Assembly: GCA_022573895.1 (NCBI GenBank)
Contig: JACZTB010000019.1
Location: 1 to 31,113, forward strand
DNA: 31,113 bases
Reading direction: 5' to 3'
Source: Nitrososphaerota archaeon
Lineage (GTDB): Archaea; Thermoproteota; Nitrososphaeria; Nitrososphaerales; Nitrosopumilaceae
The translations under genes and the position numbers were made by a program. Under the pieces are notes generated by a model. That model was given only the letters and a program-made list of their open reading frames with translations. It was not told where the DNA came from and ran no database searches. Positions 24,290-31,113 of the stretch are shown here, in pieces (positions within the stretch are counted from its first letter, which is position 1; each line of letters starts with the position of its first letter).

Positions 24290-24631
24290 TTGAACTCTCC
24301 AAATGGATTTTCCCATAAAGTGGTAAATTTGGAGAACCGAACTTTTTTTTTACAGATTCTAAAGTTTGAAAATGGATATTTTGTTTCTATCGCAGAAGGA
24401 ACTAACAAAATAGGTTCTATGGTTGTTTCTTTAGCAACTGGACCTACACCAATTACAACAACTGTTATTCCATCTAGAACTGAATCTCTTTTTCTAAAAC
24501 TTATCGCTGAACGAATCAGCACTAGGATGAGAGGTATTGCTCTAGTTTCTACCTTTACTCAAAAAGAATTAGACTCCAATACTGCAAAAGCCTTAATGTC
24601 TGAGATTATGGAGATGATAGAAAATGGCTGA
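24290..24631 (+). CDS. Small protein translationally coupled to UbiD-family decarboxylase; LpdD-like (prenylated-flavin chaperone/accessory subunit-like) by motif resemblance
   Basis: The ORF is 113 aa with a TTG start; GTG 24320 is an alternative. SIAEGTNKIGSMVVSL..TTTVIPS resembles, from my memory of the family, the GGTNPHIG core of LpdD-type partners of UbiD enzymes. The stop overlaps the UbiD ATG by 8 nt. Confidence 0.4.
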   Translation: MNSPNGFSHKVVNLENRTFFLQILKFENGYFVSIAEGTNKIGSMVVSLATGPTPITTTVIPSRTESLFLKLIAERISTRMRGIALVSTFTQKELDSNTAKALMSEIMEMIENG

Positions 24632-25955
24632 TTTAAGAAATTATATTTCTCAAATAAAAAATAGTAAAGATCTTAAAACTGTAAAAATAAAAGTTTCTAC
24701 AAAATTTGAGATTGCTGGAATCACTGCAAAAGTTGACGGTTTACATGCAGTTTTATTTGAAAATATCAAAGAAAGCAACTTTCGTTTAGTTGCTAATTTA
24801 GTGGGGACTCGAAAAAGATTTGCTCTGGCAGTTGGAAGTACAGAAGATAATATTCACGAAAAAATAATTTCAGCAATCAAAAAGGCTAAACAACCAAAAA
24901 TTATTTCTGCAGGAAAATTCATGGAAAACAAGTCAAAAAATCTTATTTCCTTGCCTATTGTAACTCATTTTGAAAAGGAATCTGGCCCATTTATCACATC
25001 TTCTATTGTTTATGTTAGGAATCCTGAAACTGGAAAACAAAATTCCTCTTTTCATAGATTAATGCCAATTGATAAAACTCATTTTTCTATTAGAATGGTA
25101 GAAGGACGTCATCTCCATCGATGTTTTGTTGATGCAAAAGAACATGGCGAAGATCTGAAAATTGCAATTACTGTTGGTGTGCATCCAGCAATTTCTATTG
25201 CAGGTGCATATCAAGCTGAATGGGGAAAAGATGAAATTGATATTGCAAATTCTCTTTTAAGCGGAAAATTAACTTTGGCAAAACTTCCTTTTACAGGATT
25301 GAATGTACCGTCAGGTGCTGAAATTGTAATGGAAGGAAAAATTCTTCGTGATGAAACTCACCGTGAATGGATGGTTGAAATGCTTCAAACATATGATCAT
25401 AAAAGATCTCAACCAGTTTTTGAACTTGAAAATCTGTATTTTAGAAATAATCCCATTTTTCATGATGTTCTATCTGGTTATTCAGAGCATAGATTACTAA
25501 TGGGAATGCCAATTGAATCCAAGTTAAATTGGGAATTGAAAAAAACTTTTCCTCAAACACTACAAGTCTCAATGACTAATGGTGGATGCAATTGGTTACA
25601 TGCTATTGTACAAATTAAAAAGAAAAGCAAGTCTGATCCTAAAAAAATAATTAAAAAAACATTTGATTCTCATCGCTCCCTAAAACAAGTAACTGTAGTT
25701 GATGAAGATATTGATCCTAATAGTGCAGAGTCTGTAGAATATGCCATGGCTACAAGATTTCAAGCGGATAAAGATCTGATTATTCTCAAAAATGTTCGTG
25801 GTTCTAGTCTTGATCCTTCTAGTGATCAACAGAAATTAAGAACTGCAAAAATGGGTATTGATGCAACCAGGTCCCTTTCAAAACATTCAGATGAATTTGA
25901 AATAGCAAAAATTCCAAAAATTGATAAAATCAAACTAGAGAAATATTTCAAATAA
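24624..25955 (+). CDS. UbiD-family (prFMN-dependent) decarboxylase; in archaea plausibly anhydromevalonate-phosphate decarboxylase
   Basis: The ORF is 443 aa. LRNYISQIKNSKDLKTVKIKV...AVLFENIKESNFRLVANLVGTRKR...GPFITSSIVYVRNPETGKQNSSFHRLM...GVHPA match the UbiD family pattern. The pathway assignment is inference. Confidence 0.85.
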   Translation: MADLRNYISQIKNSKDLKTVKIKVSTKFEIAGITAKVDGLHAVLFENIKESNFRLVANLVGTRKRFALAVGSTEDNIHEKIISAIKKAKQPKIISAGKFMENKSKNLISLPIVTHFEKESGPFITSSIVYVRNPETGKQNSSFHRLMPIDKTHFSIRMVEGRHLHRCFVDAKEHGEDLKIAITVGVHPAISIAGAYQAEWGKDEIDIANSLLSGKLTLAKLPFTGLNVPSGAEIVMEGKILRDETHREWMVEMLQTYDHKRSQPVFELENLYFRNNPIFHDVLSGYSEHRLLMGMPIESKLNWELKKTFPQTLQVSMTNGGCNWLHAIVQIKKKSKSDPKKIIKKTFDSHRSLKQVTVVDEDIDPNSAESVEYAMATRFQADKDLIILKNVRGSSLDPSSDQQKLRTAKMGIDATRSLSKHSDEFEIAKIPKIDKIKLEKYFK

Positions 25956-26072
25956 TTAAAGTCAACTGATTAAATTAAATCAGATGAATGAAAAAACGAT
26001 TAAAAAATCGTCAAAAATCGTAATTTGATTTTTATGGATCAATTTAAGAATAACAAACATAATCTTTAGTCA

Positions 26073-26486
26073 ATGTCTGAACAAGAAAAAACTAACGAGT
26101 GGGACTCATTATGGCAACAATATACAAAATCTCTAGAGAATTGGAAATCACTCTTTGAACAAATTCAGAATGCAAGTAATGATATGCAATCTAAATTCAA
26201 TCAAGTTTGGGACAAGGCTACTGTTGAATCAAGCTCCGAAACCATGAAATTATTTGGAGAAAATTGGCAAAAAGCCATGAATGATGTGGGAATGAAATCC
26301 TTGAAGGAATTTAGTGAAAATTGGCAAAAAGCTCTCAATGATTCTAATGCTTCTGTTTTCAAACAATTTGCTGAAAATTGGCAAAACACTCTAAGTTCAT
26401 CTGGATTAGAACAAATGCAAGCGTATGGTGAAATGATGAAAAAATTTGCCGAAACTTGGAATTCTATGTGGCCAAGATCCCAATAA
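26073..26486 (+). CDS. Trp-rich helical-repeat protein A (19-aa F-x-E-N-W-Q-K-A repeats), unknown function
   Basis: The ORF is 137 aa with the repeats KLFGENWQKAMND / KEFSENWQKALND / KQFAENWQNTLSS / KKFAETWNSMW. It is a paralogue of the minus-strand ORF at 28401-28634(+). Confidence 0.8.
   Translation: MSEQEKTNEWDSLWQQYTKSLENWKSLFEQIQNASNDMQSKFNQVWDKATVESSSETMKLFGENWQKAMNDVGMKSLKEFSENWQKALNDSNASVFKQFAENWQNTLSSSGLEQMQAYGEMMKKFAETWNSMWPRSQ
26259..26387 (+). repeat. 57-bp-periodic intragenic repeat (GAAAATTGGCAAAAAGC core)
   Basis: Exact 17-mers lie at 26259-26275 and 26316-26332. A 15/17 copy starts at 26373. These encode the 19-aa protein repeat. Confidence 0.8.
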
Positions 26487-26524
26487 TTTCCTAACGAATA
26501 AAAACTTGATTTAGACATTATTTT

Positions 26525-27193
26525 ATGATGACAATTACTCAGAGTGAATGCTTTATTGAACTATCTAGTTTTGAAGATTTAGCAAGATATGCCTGTGCAT
26601 TTAGAGAATTTCCAAGAAGAGTATATACTCAAGAATTTGATGGTTCAAGAATTATTTCAAGTGGTTTAACTCTTGCAAATACTTTATTGATTTTTTATGC
26701 CCAAATGCCAAAATCTGGCAGATATATTTCATATCAAGTTAATGCAGGAAAAGAAATTTGCGAAATTGTAGAATCTACAAAAAACATCTCAAATTATGCA
26801 CCTATTGTACATATGGAATCAAAGATTTCTTCATTATCTGTAAAAACCAAAAAAATTCCTGATCAGTTTCATCCAATTCAAGTTAAAGATTTGGGAAGTT
26901 TAGCACGATTAACATATGATCCTGAGTTCCCAGATGAACAAAATCTTACTTTATACACATTACCTCACAAAAATTCTTGGGTAATAGGATACATTACACA
27001 ATTAGATATGGATGACATAATCTATAATTTCAATTATGTTGAATTAGATTCTGAACCTACCAAGCATTTTATAAAATATCAGGGAAATCAAGGACGAAAT
27101 CCAGAATTTTCAGATCGTTTTGATCATGGATATTCGTATTTACCAATCATCAAAATTAAGAATGAGCATACAATCTTTGGATTTTCAGATTAA
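26525..27193 (+). CDS. Hypothetical protein (222 aa), no family recognised
   Basis: An ATG-ATG start lies 38 nt after the previous gene, which is probably co-transcribed. The composition is protein-like and the ORF is long for this AT content. No motif is identifiable by eye. Confidence 0.7.
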   Translation: MMTITQSECFIELSSFEDLARYACAFREFPRRVYTQEFDGSRIISSGLTLANTLLIFYAQMPKSGRYISYQVNAGKEICEIVESTKNISNYAPIVHMESKISSLSVKTKKIPDQFHPIQVKDLGSLARLTYDPEFPDEQNLTLYTLPHKNSWVIGYITQLDMDDIIYNFNYVELDSEPTKHFIKYQGNQGRNPEFSDRFDHGYSYLPIIKIKNEHTIFGFSD

Positions 27194-27202
27194 ATTTTAA
27201 AA

Positions 27203-27886
27203 CTATTTCCACATCGTTAATTCTTTTATTTTCTTTCTTGATTCTTCAACTAATCGTTTCATAACTTGGATGTAAATTTCGGCTGCATATACAATTTCAA
27301 TATCTTTGTATTCTTCAATATCTAGAAATGTAGATGCTATAACCTGATTTTTTCGTACTTTAGGCTCATTATTTTTATTTCTTTTATTATTTATGATTTC
27401 TAAAAATATTGGTAATTGTCTTTTGATTTCAATTTCTAATTCTTCTTTTGAACATAATTTTTCATGACTCAAATTTACTTTAATCTGTTGACAAGTATCA
27501 TCTTTATATCTACTTGATGCCATGATCATGATTTTAATCTTAGGTAGTTTTTCAAATTTGTTCTTGAATTGACAGATTTTTTTAATGAAATTTGGATATG
27601 GATTTTCATGTTCCTGATTGTATTTGATTGAATACCATTCTGAAAATTTAATTGCATTTTGATCATTTTTCATTTTTGCTTTTCTATAAAAATTTTTTTG
27701 TGAAATCTTTTCTGAAATAAATAACCCAAAATCTGTATTTCCTTCTTCAAAAATTCCATTAAATGTGTCATTTACAGAATTGATGTATTGATTAAAAAAA
27801 TAATTTACATAGTAAGGATCAGGATCGTATTGTTTAATCTGTTTTAGATATATCTCACAGTTTTTTATCGTTTTTTCAATATTCAT
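27203..27886 (-). CDS. Hypothetical protein (227 aa), no family recognised
   Basis: The start ATG shares one base with the upstream gene's TAA (TAATG on the minus strand). The protein is Lys/Asn/Tyr-rich and helical, with no catalytic motif recognised. Confidence 0.7.
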   Translation of the reverse strand: MNIEKTIKNCEIYLKQIKQYDPDPYYVNYFFNQYINSVNDTFNGIFEEGNTDFGLFISEKISQKNFYRKAKMKNDQNAIKFSEWYSIKYNQEHENPYPNFIKKICQFKNKFEKLPKIKIMIMASSRYKDDTCQQIKVNLSHEKLCSKEELEIEIKRQLPIFLEIINNKRNKNNEPKVRKNQVIASTFLDIEEYKDIEIVYAAEIYIQVMKRLVEESRKKIKELTMWK

Positions 27887-28266
27887 TAGTCTTTGCTAGA
27901 TTCAAAAGTTACATATTTTGATCGTGCTTTCAAACTTGTTGCTAATTCTTTGAAAATTTCATTTACACTAACATCAACTAGATTAATGGTTGCATTTTCC
28001 TTTACTATTTGTTTTTCAAATTTTTCTTTAATTGCAAAAGATACTGATGACCAATGTAAAGTTCCTTTCAATTGTTCTTCAACCGTGATATTTGTTGTTG
28101 GGAAATTTGCTGGCGAGAAAACAATTCCATTTGTCCATTGCATTGTGGGAATTCCTCCACCTGATGTTTTTGTACTAAACGCTATTTGTTTTACCCAATC
28201 ATCAAATTTGTATTCAATTACTTCATGAATAACCAATTTTTTCCATGGTTCTATAGAGATTTCCAT
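27886..28266 (-). CDS. Hypothetical protein (126 aa), no family recognised
   Basis: ATG 28266 opens a 126-aa ORF. The composition looks like mixed beta/alpha (..IPTMQWTNGIVFSPANFPTTNITVEEQLKGTLHW..). It is coupled to the 227-aa ORF. Confidence 0.7.
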   Translation of the reverse strand: MEISIEPWKKLVIHEVIEYKFDDWVKQIAFSTKTSGGGIPTMQWTNGIVFSPANFPTTNITVEEQLKGTLHWSSVSFAIKEKFEKQIVKENATINLVDVSVNEIFKELATSLKARSKYVTFESSKD

Positions 28267-28400
28267 TTGATCATGGTACTCTTAAACCAATTATAATCTT
28301 ATTTTTTCAGCCTAATTTGCTCTATTTATCACTGTTAAGTTTTCCAAATTAAAAAAATGAACAAATGTGAAATCTTTTCTAAATTTACAATTTTACAGAA

Positions 28401-28634
28401 TCACATCTGTTTTGATTGCCATGCCTGATTAAATTTTTTGATGGCTTCTTGGTATGCCATAATTGAATCGTCACCTGATGTTTTAAGAAATTTTTCCCAC
28501 TGCTCATTGAATTTTTTGATTGATTTAATATTGGTTTCTTTGAAAATATTTTCAATCATATTTGATTGTTGTTTAATATATTCAGGGCCAATTTCTTCCC
28601 ATGTATTCTCCCAACTTGAAGTTACTTTTTTCAA
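28401..28634 (-). CDS. Trp-rich helical-repeat protein B (paralogue of 26073-26486); reading frame stays open and homologous-looking up to 28898
   Basis: The track ORF starts at TTG 28634. KKFNEQWEKFLKTSGDDSIMAYQEAIKKFNQAWQSKQ aligns with KEFSENWQKALND...MQAYGEMMKKFAETWNSMW of protein A. The upstream 88 codons encode a further W-repeat (EFEKVWTKYNIALTGWKESLAQWQKATNE) and a Lys-rich tail. Confidence 0.75.
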   Translation of the reverse strand: MKKVTSSWENTWEEIGPEYIKQQSNMIENIFKETNIKSIKKFNEQWEKFLKTSGDDSIMAYQEAIKKFNQAWQSKQM

Positions 28635-29327
28635 TAATTCCGCATCTGTTTCTAATGCTTTTTGACATGCATCATTATATGCTATTAGAGTTTCATTTGT
28701 AGCTTTTTGCCACTGTGCAAGAGATTCTTTCCAACCAGTTAACGCAATATTGTATTTTGTCCATACTTTTTCAAATTCTAGTTTTTTTGTTGATGGTTTA
28801 GATTGTTTTTTTGGTCTAGCAGATGTTTTTTTGTTTGATTTCTTTTTATGAATGCTTTTTTTCTTGGTAGTTACATAATAGTTTGAAAATAGTAGATGTT
28901 AAATCTTTTAATAATTTCAAAGTTTGAAAAATCTAATAGATTTTCATTGAAATCCTGATGCTTTGATAAAATTTGTAAGATACTTTTTGTCCTTATTTTT
29001 GAATAATTTGTAGTGCTCTTTGCATAGATTTCTCGTTTCTTTAAAACTAATTTTTACTGTTTCTGTTGCTTTTAACTTACACTTTGATATACTACATCGC
29101 AATATAGTAAATAATCCGTATTATCTAATAAAACTTTGAAATTATGTTATTACCTTCTGTAAACCATTACTAACACAGCAATTAACCTCTACCTTTTTGT
29201 AAGATTTGGATATTTTGTACATCAATGCAAGAATCTACTACTGACAACGAGAGGAAATCTCTCAGAGTTCTACAATTAGGGGTAGCGCCTTTGATATTTT
29301 CTTTTTCATCTCATGCATTTTTTCAGA

Positions 29328-29642
29328 CTATCTGGAAAACAGTCTTGCAAGAAATGAACTCTTTTTTACTACAGGCGTATACATCTCTGTACTTTCTGCA
29401 TCTTTTCTATCAATGATTTCATCTAATTCTTCGTTTGAAATTAGCGTCCTTGAATCCTTTTCTTTTTGTTTTGCATCTGTATTACCTTTGAATCTCTCTA
29501 TCCTCTGTTCAAGTTGGTCATTCATTGACTCTAAAAATCTTATGTCCGTCTTGTAAAGTGGTTCGTTCTTCTCTATACAACTAAGGATAAATTTTAGTCT
29601 GCCTTCATCTCCCATTCCTGTATTCAAAAGATCAGTTGCCAT
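29328..29642 (-). CDS. Hypothetical protein (104 aa; helical/coiled-coil)
   Basis: ATG 29642 is preferred; the track's TTG 29657 would add 5 aa. The sequence is MATDLLNTGMGDEGRLKFILSCIEKNEPLYKTDIRFLESMNDQLEQRIERF... with no family recognised. It is preferred over the overlapping + strand ORF 29225-29416, whose sequence is low-complexity. Confidence 0.5.
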   Translation of the reverse strand: MATDLLNTGMGDEGRLKFILSCIEKNEPLYKTDIRFLESMNDQLEQRIERFKGNTDAKQKEKDSRTLISNEELDEIIDRKDAESTEMYTPVVKKSSFLARLFSR

Positions 29643-29965
29643 TGTTTTGTGGTTCAATTTTTTATCTTATCTGCTTTGAATTAATATTCTTTCTTTTTTT
29701 ACTATTTGATACGAACTGTTAACAGCTTATGCAAACTGGAGTTGGATTTTAGTAAAGGATCAACTTTTCTTCTCTAGTCTTCTTTTCTCATCACATCAAG
29801 AAAATACAAAGATGAATTTGATAAATAATGTCCACAGACGGGTTATAGAGTATCAAATCAAGCAACTAAAGAACGAACTCGCAAAATTCGAGGAATAATT
29901 CTTCCTCTTTTTTATTCCAACAAACAAACTACTGTATTATAATGTGGATTAATGTAACTTTCTAC

Positions 29966-29995
29966 GAGTAAAACGGGGGGCTTCTATTTTTACTC
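29966..29995. other. Perfect 8-bp inverted repeat GAGTAAAA-(14 nt, contains G6)-TTTTACTC in non-coding DNA
   Basis: Read directly from the sequence. The G6 run in the loop stands out in this AT-rich non-coding stretch. Confidence 0.3.
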
Positions 29996-30175
29996 TTTGT
30001 CGATGAACTCATTCACATTTCATAATCCTATACAAGATTACGTATTTTGTACCATGTAATAATATCATTGAATTTTTAGTCTACCTTTTTCTACTTATAA
30101 CGAAGTTTATTTGGTGCAGGAAGTACAGATCAATAACTTATATCCATAAATCCTGACATTTTATGTGATTTCTAA

Positions 30176-30727
30176 ATGAGCTCTGATGAACATTCATCAC
30201 ACGATCTACTTCCAAAATTATATTTTGATATTAATGCATGGATGAGACCTTTTCAAGTGAAAAACAGTACTACACAACTAGAATCTGATGCAATATTGGA
30301 AATAATACGTAATCATCAAAGTTTTGCTATACATTCATCAGAATTTGAAACTAACTTTTTTGAAGGAACGCAACACAGTCATTCATTAAGCGATGCTAAG
30401 AAAAGTGCTTTTGCAAAAGCCTATACTATTTGTAAAAATGTAGTAATTGATTTAGACAAAAATGATCCTTACTGTTTTAATGAAATAAAAGAGTTTCATG
30501 ATAAAGTTTGTTTGCATGATCGTGAAGACAGATTTCATATTGTAATTGCTTGGATGAAAGAAATTGATTATTTTATCACTGCTGACCGTGAATTATTTTT
30601 AGATAGAAAAAATGATATTCAATTAACTTTAGCGTCAATGCATCATATTCTTGCTGACTCTAATTCTCATAAAATAGAGATATTAAACCCGAGGGAATTT
30701 GTTAGTCGTTTTATAAAGAACCCTTAA
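30176..30727 (+). CDS. PIN-domain protein (VapC-like ribonuclease toxin family)
   Basis: LYFDINAW carries the first Asp, ESDAILEII the Glu, and EDRFHIVIAWMKEIDYFITADRELF the D-x-x-H-x-x-x-A...F-I-T-x-D pattern typical of PIN_3-type domains. Confidence 0.7.
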   Translation: MSSDEHSSHDLLPKLYFDINAWMRPFQVKNSTTQLESDAILEIIRNHQSFAIHSSEFETNFFEGTQHSHSLSDAKKSAFAKAYTICKNVVIDLDKNDPYCFNEIKEFHDKVCLHDREDRFHIVIAWMKEIDYFITADRELFLDRKNDIQLTLASMHHILADSNSHKIEILNPREFVSRFIKNP

Positions 30728-30771
30728 TTTAATTTCAAATTATTACTACTTTAAGCTTAAATAGTGAGATC

Positions 30772-31113
30772 ATGAGTTTTACTAATATATTGACATATGA
30801 TTCTGATAAAAAAATGAAGGAATATGATGAACTAGTTAAAAAATTTGGTTTGGATAAAGCATTAGAAATCTTGAGTTCTACTGGCGACATCTATGATGGT
30901 GATGTAGTTGAAGATAAAAAGAATAAAATGATTCTTGATGATGAAACAATTAAGCGACTTGCTGGTCATTTGAAAGCTCCAGAAAAAATTGAAATCCATT
31001 TGCCTAGTAAAGAAGTAAGCATGATCATCACAGATGATGGTTCTATTACTATTTTCGAAACAGCTGATACTTCGAGCAGTCAAGAAATTCAAACAATAAT
31101 TCCACTAGATATA
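30772..31113 (+). CDS. Hypothetical protein, 3'-truncated by window edge
   Basis: It is not in the track because it has no stop in the window. ATG 30772 opens 114 stop-free codons running to the last base (MSFTNILTYDSDKKMKEYDELVKKFGLDKALEIL...). This frame is antisense to the track ORF 30862-31092. Confidence 0.6.
   Translation, partial: MSFTNILTYDSDKKMKEYDELVKKFGLDKALEILSSTGDIYDGDVVEDKKNKMILDDETIKRLAGHLKAPEKIEIHLPSKEVSMIITDDGSITIFETADTSSSQEIQTIIPLDI

Follow-up and report, generated by a model that had tools for sequence, protein, structure and literature searches.

Paralogous Trp-rich helical proteins bound a variable gene slot in the core genome of ammonia-oxidising archaea

Gene content of the block

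The window analysed here is positions 1 to 31,113 of contig JACZTB010000019.1 (assembly GCA_022573895.1) from a Nitrososphaerota archaeon of the Nitrosopumilaceae. Our subject is a block of small genes near its right end, in which two Trp-rich helical proteins, A and B, face each other across three orphan genes named X222, Y227 and Z126. The block is vertically inherited, lineage-specific core genome of ammonia-oxidising archaea (Nitrosopumilales) and is not an accessory or defence island. The interval between A and B is a variable slot, occupied by unrelated orphans that include X222, the Z126-Y227 unit, a further gene W and sometimes a gene of the Q family described below. A and B themselves are tentatively read as phasin-like proteins associated with storage granules. 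The features are as follows.

24290..24631, plus strand: PAC4-like protein, 113 aa (Pfam PF16093, E = 6e-9), conserved left flank of the block
24624..25955, plus strand: UbiD-family decarboxylase, 443 aa (Pfam UbiD_N/UbiD/UbiD_C, E = 8.5e-49)
26073..26486, plus strand: protein A, 137 aa, a 19-aa repeat protein with 202 homologues
26525..27193, plus strand: X222, an orphan protein of 222 aa, found in 38 of 52 species-level loci
27194..27202, unstranded: 9-bp spacer parting the convergent stop codons of X222 and Y227
27203..27886, minus strand: Y227, a basic orphan protein of 227 aa, encoded second in the Z126-Y227 unit
27886..28266, minus strand: Z126, an orphan protein of 126 aa and the most strongly conserved in the block
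28267..28400, unstranded: 134-bp spacer between Z126 and B, the site of gene W in most relatives; W is missing in the window
28401..28874, minus strand: protein B, 157 codons, a Lys-rich tail plus a helical domain aligning as a paralogue of A; its conserved ATG is replaced by GTA
28944..29102, minus strand: o52, a 52-aa Cys/His open reading frame (ORF) directly upstream of B on the same strand

A first-pass annotation of this DNA had placed A, X222, Y227, Z126 and the open frame of B, which runs from 28898 down to 28401, at the correct coordinates, and its count of 9 bp between the two convergent stop codons also stands. The stop codon of Z126 and the start codon of Y227 share 1 nt, and these two genes form a unit of their own. 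On the left flank, the PAC4-like gene overlaps the start of the UbiD gene. The rest of the window consists of housekeeping genes (ribonucleotide reductase, EMG1, HflX, PhoU), and the GC profile across the block shows no sharp break. Scans of the region for tRNAs, Rfam families and tandem repeats gave no tRNA, no RNA-family match and no notable tandem repeat, and a sigma-70 scan of the region is not meaningful for archaea.

Conservation of the block and its variable slot

The species-level survey used one genome per species and gave 80 loci, mapped by tblastn. Essentially all of them share the gene order PAC4-like, UbiD, (4HBT thioesterase), A, (X222), Y227, Z126, (W), B, o52, o69, UbiA, and the block was found in about 45 metagenome loci as well. 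The block is not where an accessory part of the window begins, as had been proposed: it is syntenic in about 150 related loci of Nitrosopumilus and Nitrosarchaeum, in which similarity to the window ends only at about 29177. The PAC4-like and UbiD genes are syntenic across all lineages examined and accompany A in nearly all related loci, and the whole PhoU-PUA-NAC-PAC4-UbiD flank is syntenic too. The region is thus better pictured as core genome with a variable slot than as an accessory or defence island.

The content of the slot was counted in the 52 species-level loci that hold both A and B:

X222, Y227, Z126 and W: 26 of 52 loci
X222, Y227 and Z126 (the window's type): 10 of 52 loci
Y227, Z126 and W: 8 of 52 loci
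Y227 and Z126: 6 of 52 loci
one of the above plus a Q-family gene: 2 of 52 loci

X222 is absent in 14 of these species (27%), is a pseudogene in 4, and is dispensable in many. Its distance from A is about 40 bp in some clades only and about 250 bp in others. Gene W, present in 35 of the 52 species (67%), lies on the opposite strand between Z126 and B, divergent from Z126, and the gap between Z126 and B ranges across relatives from 61 bp to 5.1 kb. In six loci (L004, L132, L133, L139, L165, L167) A and B are directly convergent and no gene lies between them; L004 is a 63%-GC relative on a 1.86-Mb contig. Among the metagenome loci, A-Z126-B occurs in L171 and A-Z126-W in L147 and L149, and in L090 two members of the A/B family form a tandem operon with an 8-nt overlap. 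The mirror-like layout is therefore specific to the window's clade, and the apparent B-Z126-Y227 operon follows from the loss of W there.

The linkage of A and B to the intervening genes, which the first-pass annotation had proposed to survey, is conserved across Nitrosopumilus and Nitrosarchaeum but does not extend to the lineages in which A is 52-67% identical. There A is convergent with UbiD and the PAC4-like gene, and no B, X222, Y227 or Z126 is found in the retrieved flanks (up to 10 kb). The locus L087, with an A that is 50% identical, has UbiD and A followed by a PAS-domain protein in the place of Y227, a Z126 homologue and W. In distant lineages B occurs at unrelated loci.

Substitution patterns were compared among relatives as the ratio of nonsynonymous to synonymous rates (dN/dS), together with the number of disrupted copies:

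UbiD: in-frame stops or frameshifts in 3 of 81 copies, dN/dS 0.09
A: 0 of 84 copies, dN/dS 0.10
X222: 4 of 59 copies, dN/dS 0.15
Y227: about 4 of 80 copies, dN/dS 0.18
Z126: 1 of 76 copies, dN/dS 0.08
B: no disrupted copy seen (a count that includes cross-hits to A), dN/dS 0.12-0.18, contaminated by cross-hits to A
o52: dN/dS 0.15

Since dN/dS lies between 0.08 and 0.18 against relatives, all five proteins of the block (A, X222, Y227, Z126 and B) are products of real genes under purifying selection.

Proteins A and B

BLASTP aligns A with the full B frame at 29% identity over 123 aa (E = 2e-17), covering the whole helical domain, and on this alignment the two proteins are true paralogues, as had been noticed earlier. 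Of the two pairs of repeats that the first-pass annotation had set against each other, the second is aligned correctly and the first is shifted by one 19-aa repeat; in the BLASTP alignment VFKQFAENWQNTLSSSG stands opposite SIKKFNEQWEKFLKTSG. A has 202 homologues, and among the matches listed identity is 67-88%, all from Nitrosopumilus-type genomes. Distant subclades hold both A-type members (C-terminus TW-x-x-MWP/K) and B-type members (Lys-rich N-terminal tail), and the duplication is for this reason taken to be old.

Protein A is acidic (isoelectric point 4.8), contains 6.6% Trp and is hydrophilic overall. Its sequence holds four copies of a 19-aa F-x-E-N-W-Q-K-A repeat and has a conserved TW-x-x-MWPK motif at the C-terminus. 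Its F/W/L residues form a stripe with a hydrophobic period of 3.8 residues (range 3.7-3.8) and a hydrophobic moment of 0.4-0.59. An AlphaFold2 model of A is all helix (residues 4-52, 55-72, 75-89, 93-109 and 112-132) at a mean predicted local distance difference test score (pLDDT) of 61, which is low confidence, and the 19-aa repeats fall on the last four of these helices. The predictor worked from alignments that are too shallow, with 67-88% identity for A apart from the window's own B, and 79-88% for Z126. The grand average of hydropathy is about -1.06, and by eye there is no hydrophobic N-terminal or membrane-spanning stretch.

B homologues are 154-173 aa long and all start MA[TAV]KKK. The N-terminal tail of the window's B, about 32 aa long, has an isoelectric point of 11.6, with 14 Lys or Arg and no Asp or Glu, and a tail of this kind stands at the start of every B homologue recovered with a complete N-terminus (41 loci); in L079 it reads KKTAAKKKTPAKKTAAKPKK.

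Searches of the five proteins against Pfam, NCBIfam, PADLOC and PHROGs returned noise only. A DesA/ISL3 tail hit (E = 2e-4) was rejected on the ground that only 4 of 33 members of the A/B family show it. In profile searches of the Protein Data Bank (PDB) with A, X222, Y227, Z126 and the wider A/B family, the only matches were to designed helical bundles or at noise level. A combined A+B profile run against 1.84 billion cluster representatives reached only 120 clusters at E <= 1e-3, nearly all of 120-185 aa, and the long proteins that it also matched (phage tape-measure, TPR, HhH and zinc-finger proteins) were taken to be artefacts of repeats or composition. The A/B family is small and restricted to ammonia-oxidising archaea, and A and B are the oldest elements of the block: cytoplasmic, all-alpha and Trp-rich.

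The start codon of B and the o52 reading frame

In the DNA alignment of the conserved start region of B, relatives read ...TTGTATGACTACC (M-T/A-T-K-K-K) where the window reads ...TTATGTAACTACC. An in-frame GTA at 28874-28872 replaces the conserved ATG, and an out-of-frame ATG-TAA is created (window 28868-28880). Among the closest relatives aligned (L005-L007 and L012), this change from ATG to GTA is confined to the window. The next in-frame starts would be an ATT at 28853 and a TTG at 28634, and the window's B may be a recent pseudogene, may use one of these rare or non-canonical starts, or may reflect an assembly error.

B had also been placed at the head of its own transcription unit, a view that does not survive the presence of the conserved o52 upstream on the same strand, 69 bp from B in the window. 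Wherever B occurs among the species-level loci, 52 in all, this ORF adjoins it. With its C-x4-C-x18-C-x2-H pattern, o52 may encode a small zinc-binding partner or regulator of B.

Orphan proteins of the slot

X222, Y227 and Z126 are mutually unrelated, and the earlier statement that they fall in no known family holds in searches of Pfam, NCBIfam, PADLOC, PHROGs and the PDB. Z126 has 650 homologues, of which the 120 listed are all without a functional name. Its identity is 81-96% across the genus and still 72% in L087, where A is only 50% identical; it is as conserved as the neighbouring enzyme. Y227 evolves fast, with 38-92% identity among relatives. Z126 is a strongly constrained core protein, and Y227 and X222 are more weakly constrained additions. 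The AlphaFold2 model of Z126 (pLDDT 47) is unusable.

An assignment of Z126 to DUF6659, a family whose members flank phaE in archaeal phaE-phaC loci, was considered and rejected (Pfam E = 0.044 over 32 residues; hhalign probability 0.2% against six DUF6659 proteins). In L087 (6407-7286) the Z126 homologue is followed by the PAS-domain protein, which is unrelated to Y227. This hints that the downstream partner of Z126 is a swappable sensor or regulatory protein. Gene W (for example L052:12296-13816) encodes a conserved N-terminal domain, long acidic Pro/Glu repeats of the PEPVTEEPEP type that vary in length, and, at the C-terminus, a DUF5679 zinc ribbon in one or two copies.

Polyhydroxyalkanoate loci and the Q family

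A link between the A/B family and polyhydroxyalkanoate (PHA) is suggested by one lineage, in which an A-type gene is convergent with phaC-phaE (L093 and L096). Its product is 43% identical to A (E = 6e-39) and ends in a C-terminal tail of KPKQS repeats. A GEPSRM motif is common to the P0249 tail and to a 66-aa ORF beside the A-like gene in L093.

The phaEC loci of three lineages (L093:652-8678, L094:9436-16893 and L095:9047-12687) share a hydrolase, an AbrB/MazE-like protein and a helical protein of 138-149 aa, here called Q. One Q protein matches Phasin_2 at E = 4.9e-4, below the curated cut-off. The combination of Q with an AbrB-like protein at phaEC matches the haloarchaeal arrangement in which phaR, encoding an AbrB-type regulator, stands beside phaP (PMC9049629), which makes Q the better candidate for the main phasin. 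The AbrB/MazE-like and Q proteins of these loci are likely to be the PhaR and PhaP equivalents of ammonia-oxidising archaea, for which literature searches found no description.

Q paralogues also occur convergent and next to A in L054, L055, L070 and L162, and beside the tandem A/B-family pair in L090. A-type proteins, those of the most distant clades included, end [TA]W-x-x-[MI]W-[PK]-x (residues 125-135 in A) and Q proteins end SWI[TSA]AFTPK, so the two groups may have a C-terminal motif in common.

Possible functions of A and B

We consider it possible, with a probability of roughly 0.4, that A and B are phasin-like, granule-associated proteins. The amphipathic, F/W/L-striped helices of A and B would bind the surface of PHA granules, the polymer being made by PhaE and PhaC as reported for these organisms. 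The polycationic tail of B could then anchor the granule to a polyanion such as nucleic acid, like PhaF and PhaM in bacteria. The Q family, beside the AbrB-like regulator in phaEC clusters, would more likely supply the main phasin, with A and B as auxiliary coat and tether proteins. A paper on Nitrosopumilus maritimus, which mentions no phasin, reports that this organism has PhaE and PhaC, carbon-rich granules and a Raman band that was attributed to PHA (PMC11082331). We searched the literature for phasins in Nitrosopumilus, for DUF5679 and for UbiD in connection with menaquinone, and no earlier description came up.

The likeness to known phasins (PhaP; PF05597, PF09361; haloarchaeal PhaP) is one of general character. 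A and B are, like them, small, non-enzymatic, cytoplasmic, amphipathic and almost entirely alpha-helical (in the case of A, in a model with a pLDDT of only 61), one member of the family lies beside phaC-phaE, and the host clade is reported to make PHA. The hydrophobic moment of the A helices may be set beside the 0.34-0.40 of PhaP1 helices (PMC5658603). Unlike phasins, A and B show no significant sequence or profile similarity to a phasin family, are unusually rich in Trp with their 19-aa repeats, and in Nitrosopumilus are encoded away from phaEC, where Q and the AbrB-like protein are the better positional equivalent of haloarchaeal phaR-phaP. Phasin families are phylogenetically heterogeneous.

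B also resembles the granule-nucleoid tethers PhaF of Pseudomonas and PhaM of Cupriavidus, which combine an amphipathic helical domain with a Lys/Ala/Pro-rich, histone-H1-like tail (AAKP-type in PhaF and PAKKA-type in PhaM; PMC5658603, PMC9049629). The KPKQS-repeat tail of the A-type member beside phaC recalls them as well. The tail of B is N-terminal whereas theirs is C-terminal, and the resemblance is without sequence homology. PhaE of the class III PHA synthase (PF09712) is, like A and B, helical with scattered W/F motifs, but a relationship was rejected because there is no Pfam match at E <= 1; BLASTP of the L093 PhaE against A gives E = 0.058. Exchangeable apolipoproteins such as apolipophorin-III are amphipathic helix bundles of similar size. 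Their match to the family is at noise level (Pfam E = 0.013, Foldseek E = 7-9) and indicates no evolutionary link.

Several observations weigh against a granule role. The adjacency to phaC is limited to a single lineage, with two loci that are 92% identical. A reaches the Phasin profile at E = 0.0094 and 16.4 bits, where the cut-off is 28.8; Phasin_2 is matched by only 4 of 33 family members (best E = 0.013), and the NCBIfam phasin_2 model by 1 of 33 (E = 0.035). The hhalign probability of the A/B family is 2% against the archaeal PhaE of L093 and 14% against the Q family. In L094 and L095, the loci from Nitrosopumilus and Nitrosopelagicus, phaEC has no A/B gene within 10 kb, and phaEC is neither in the window nor within 10 kb of A. 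The mean hydrophobicity of the helices is low, and by Eisenberg's surface-seeking criterion they plot as globular. The AlphaFold2 model of A, at its low confidence, finds nothing in the PDB by Foldseek at E < 1, and the gene found most constantly beside A is that of UbiD rather than one for PHA. The first-pass annotation, whose observation was largely right, had suggested a resemblance, in composition only, to phasins or PhaE. This idea gains indirect support from the A-type gene beside phaC-phaE in one lineage and from the tail of B, and it lacks profile homology to either family; as a guess at function it is plausible but unproven.

A broader version, in which A and B are a new archaeal family of storage-granule coat and tether proteins that are independent functional analogues of PhaF and PhaM, and Z126, Y227, X222 and W are a clade-specific module associated with granules or regulating them, is rather unlikely.

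It is quite possible, if still short of an even chance, that the block has no common function and is inherited synteny of unrelated orphans. A and B would then be generic small helical proteins, for instance chaperone-like or associated with the nucleoid or RNA through the tail of B. The lack of relationship among X222, Y227 and Z126, their independently varying presence, the high synteny of the region in general (the PhoU-PUA-NAC-PAC4-UbiD flank included), the occurrence of B at unrelated loci in more distant lineages and the failure of any database match to give one of the five proteins a function all fit this explanation. It does not account well for the A/B members themselves, which adjoin each other in three arrangements (convergent, convergent around inserts, and as a tandem operon) and recur beside Q-family or PHA genes, and this is more than inherited gene order predicts. 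The constancy of UbiD suggests a different role, in which A and B would be non-enzymatic accessory factors of menaquinone biosynthesis, carrying or scaffolding lipid intermediates in a role comparable to that of UbiJ and UbiK, together with UbiD and UbiA-type enzymes. A adjoins UbiD in every lineage with enough flanking sequence, and lineages with an A of 50-67% identity and a reversed orientation are no exception; in Nitrosopumilus the block sits between the UbiD-4HBT thioesterase pair and the highly conserved UbiA gene; and L085 has a B-type gene 90 bp ahead of a CofH_C-type radical SAM gene, close to a VitK2_biosynth gene of the futalosine pathway. We judge this role unlikely, however. The convergence of A and UbiD in distant lineages excludes co-transcription there, UbiD belongs to a larger syntenic housekeeping block so that its adjacency to A may be mere inheritance, the other B-type context examined (L091) has no quinone genes, and a menaquinone role of this UbiD and UbiA is itself assumed.

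The two-module system of scaffold plus cargo that was originally proposed, possibly for conflict or defence, would have A serving X222 and B serving Z126 and Y227. The mirror-like layout of the window invites it, and conflict genes are often fast-evolving and lost, as Y227 is fast-evolving and X222 and Y227 are sometimes missing. The gene-content survey largely refutes this model: X222 is absent in 27% of species and its spacing from A is not conserved, W on the opposite strand parts B from Z126 in 67% of species, and A-B pairs without cargo exist. A conflict or defence role also finds no PADLOC match (best E >= 0.015, 6-12 bits), no PHROG match and no phage match for X222 or Y227, and the block keeps one fixed chromosomal position in all relatives with dN/dS of 0.08-0.18. 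We regard the proposal as highly improbable.

Marine ammonia-oxidising archaea rank among the ocean's most abundant cells, and PHA-like granules and expression of PhaE and PhaC have recently been reported for them. If A/B and Q are granule proteins, then they are concrete and testable candidates for the building and partitioning of a carbon store in these organisms. Coat and tether proteins would have been identified for the PHA granules reported in marine ammonia-oxidising archaea, and they would offer a handle on carbon partitioning in slow-growing oligotrophs. If they are not, five well-conserved families that are under purifying selection, restricted to ammonia-oxidising archaea and without known relatives still stand.

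Flanks of the block

The last part of the window, 29178-31113, is its truly unique part: the ORFs at 29328-29657 (minus strand) and 30176-30727 (plus strand) and the surrounding DNA match none of about 170 loci, and this part is probably a strain-specific insertion. In relatives, o52 is followed by a 69-aa ORF (o69) and then by the highly conserved UbiA gene. On the other side, 75 related loci carry a 4HBT-family thioesterase of 162 aa between UbiD and A. The corresponding interval of the window (25956-26072) is a gap of 117 bp that holds the palindrome TGATTAAATTAAATCA and short AAAAATCGT repeats.

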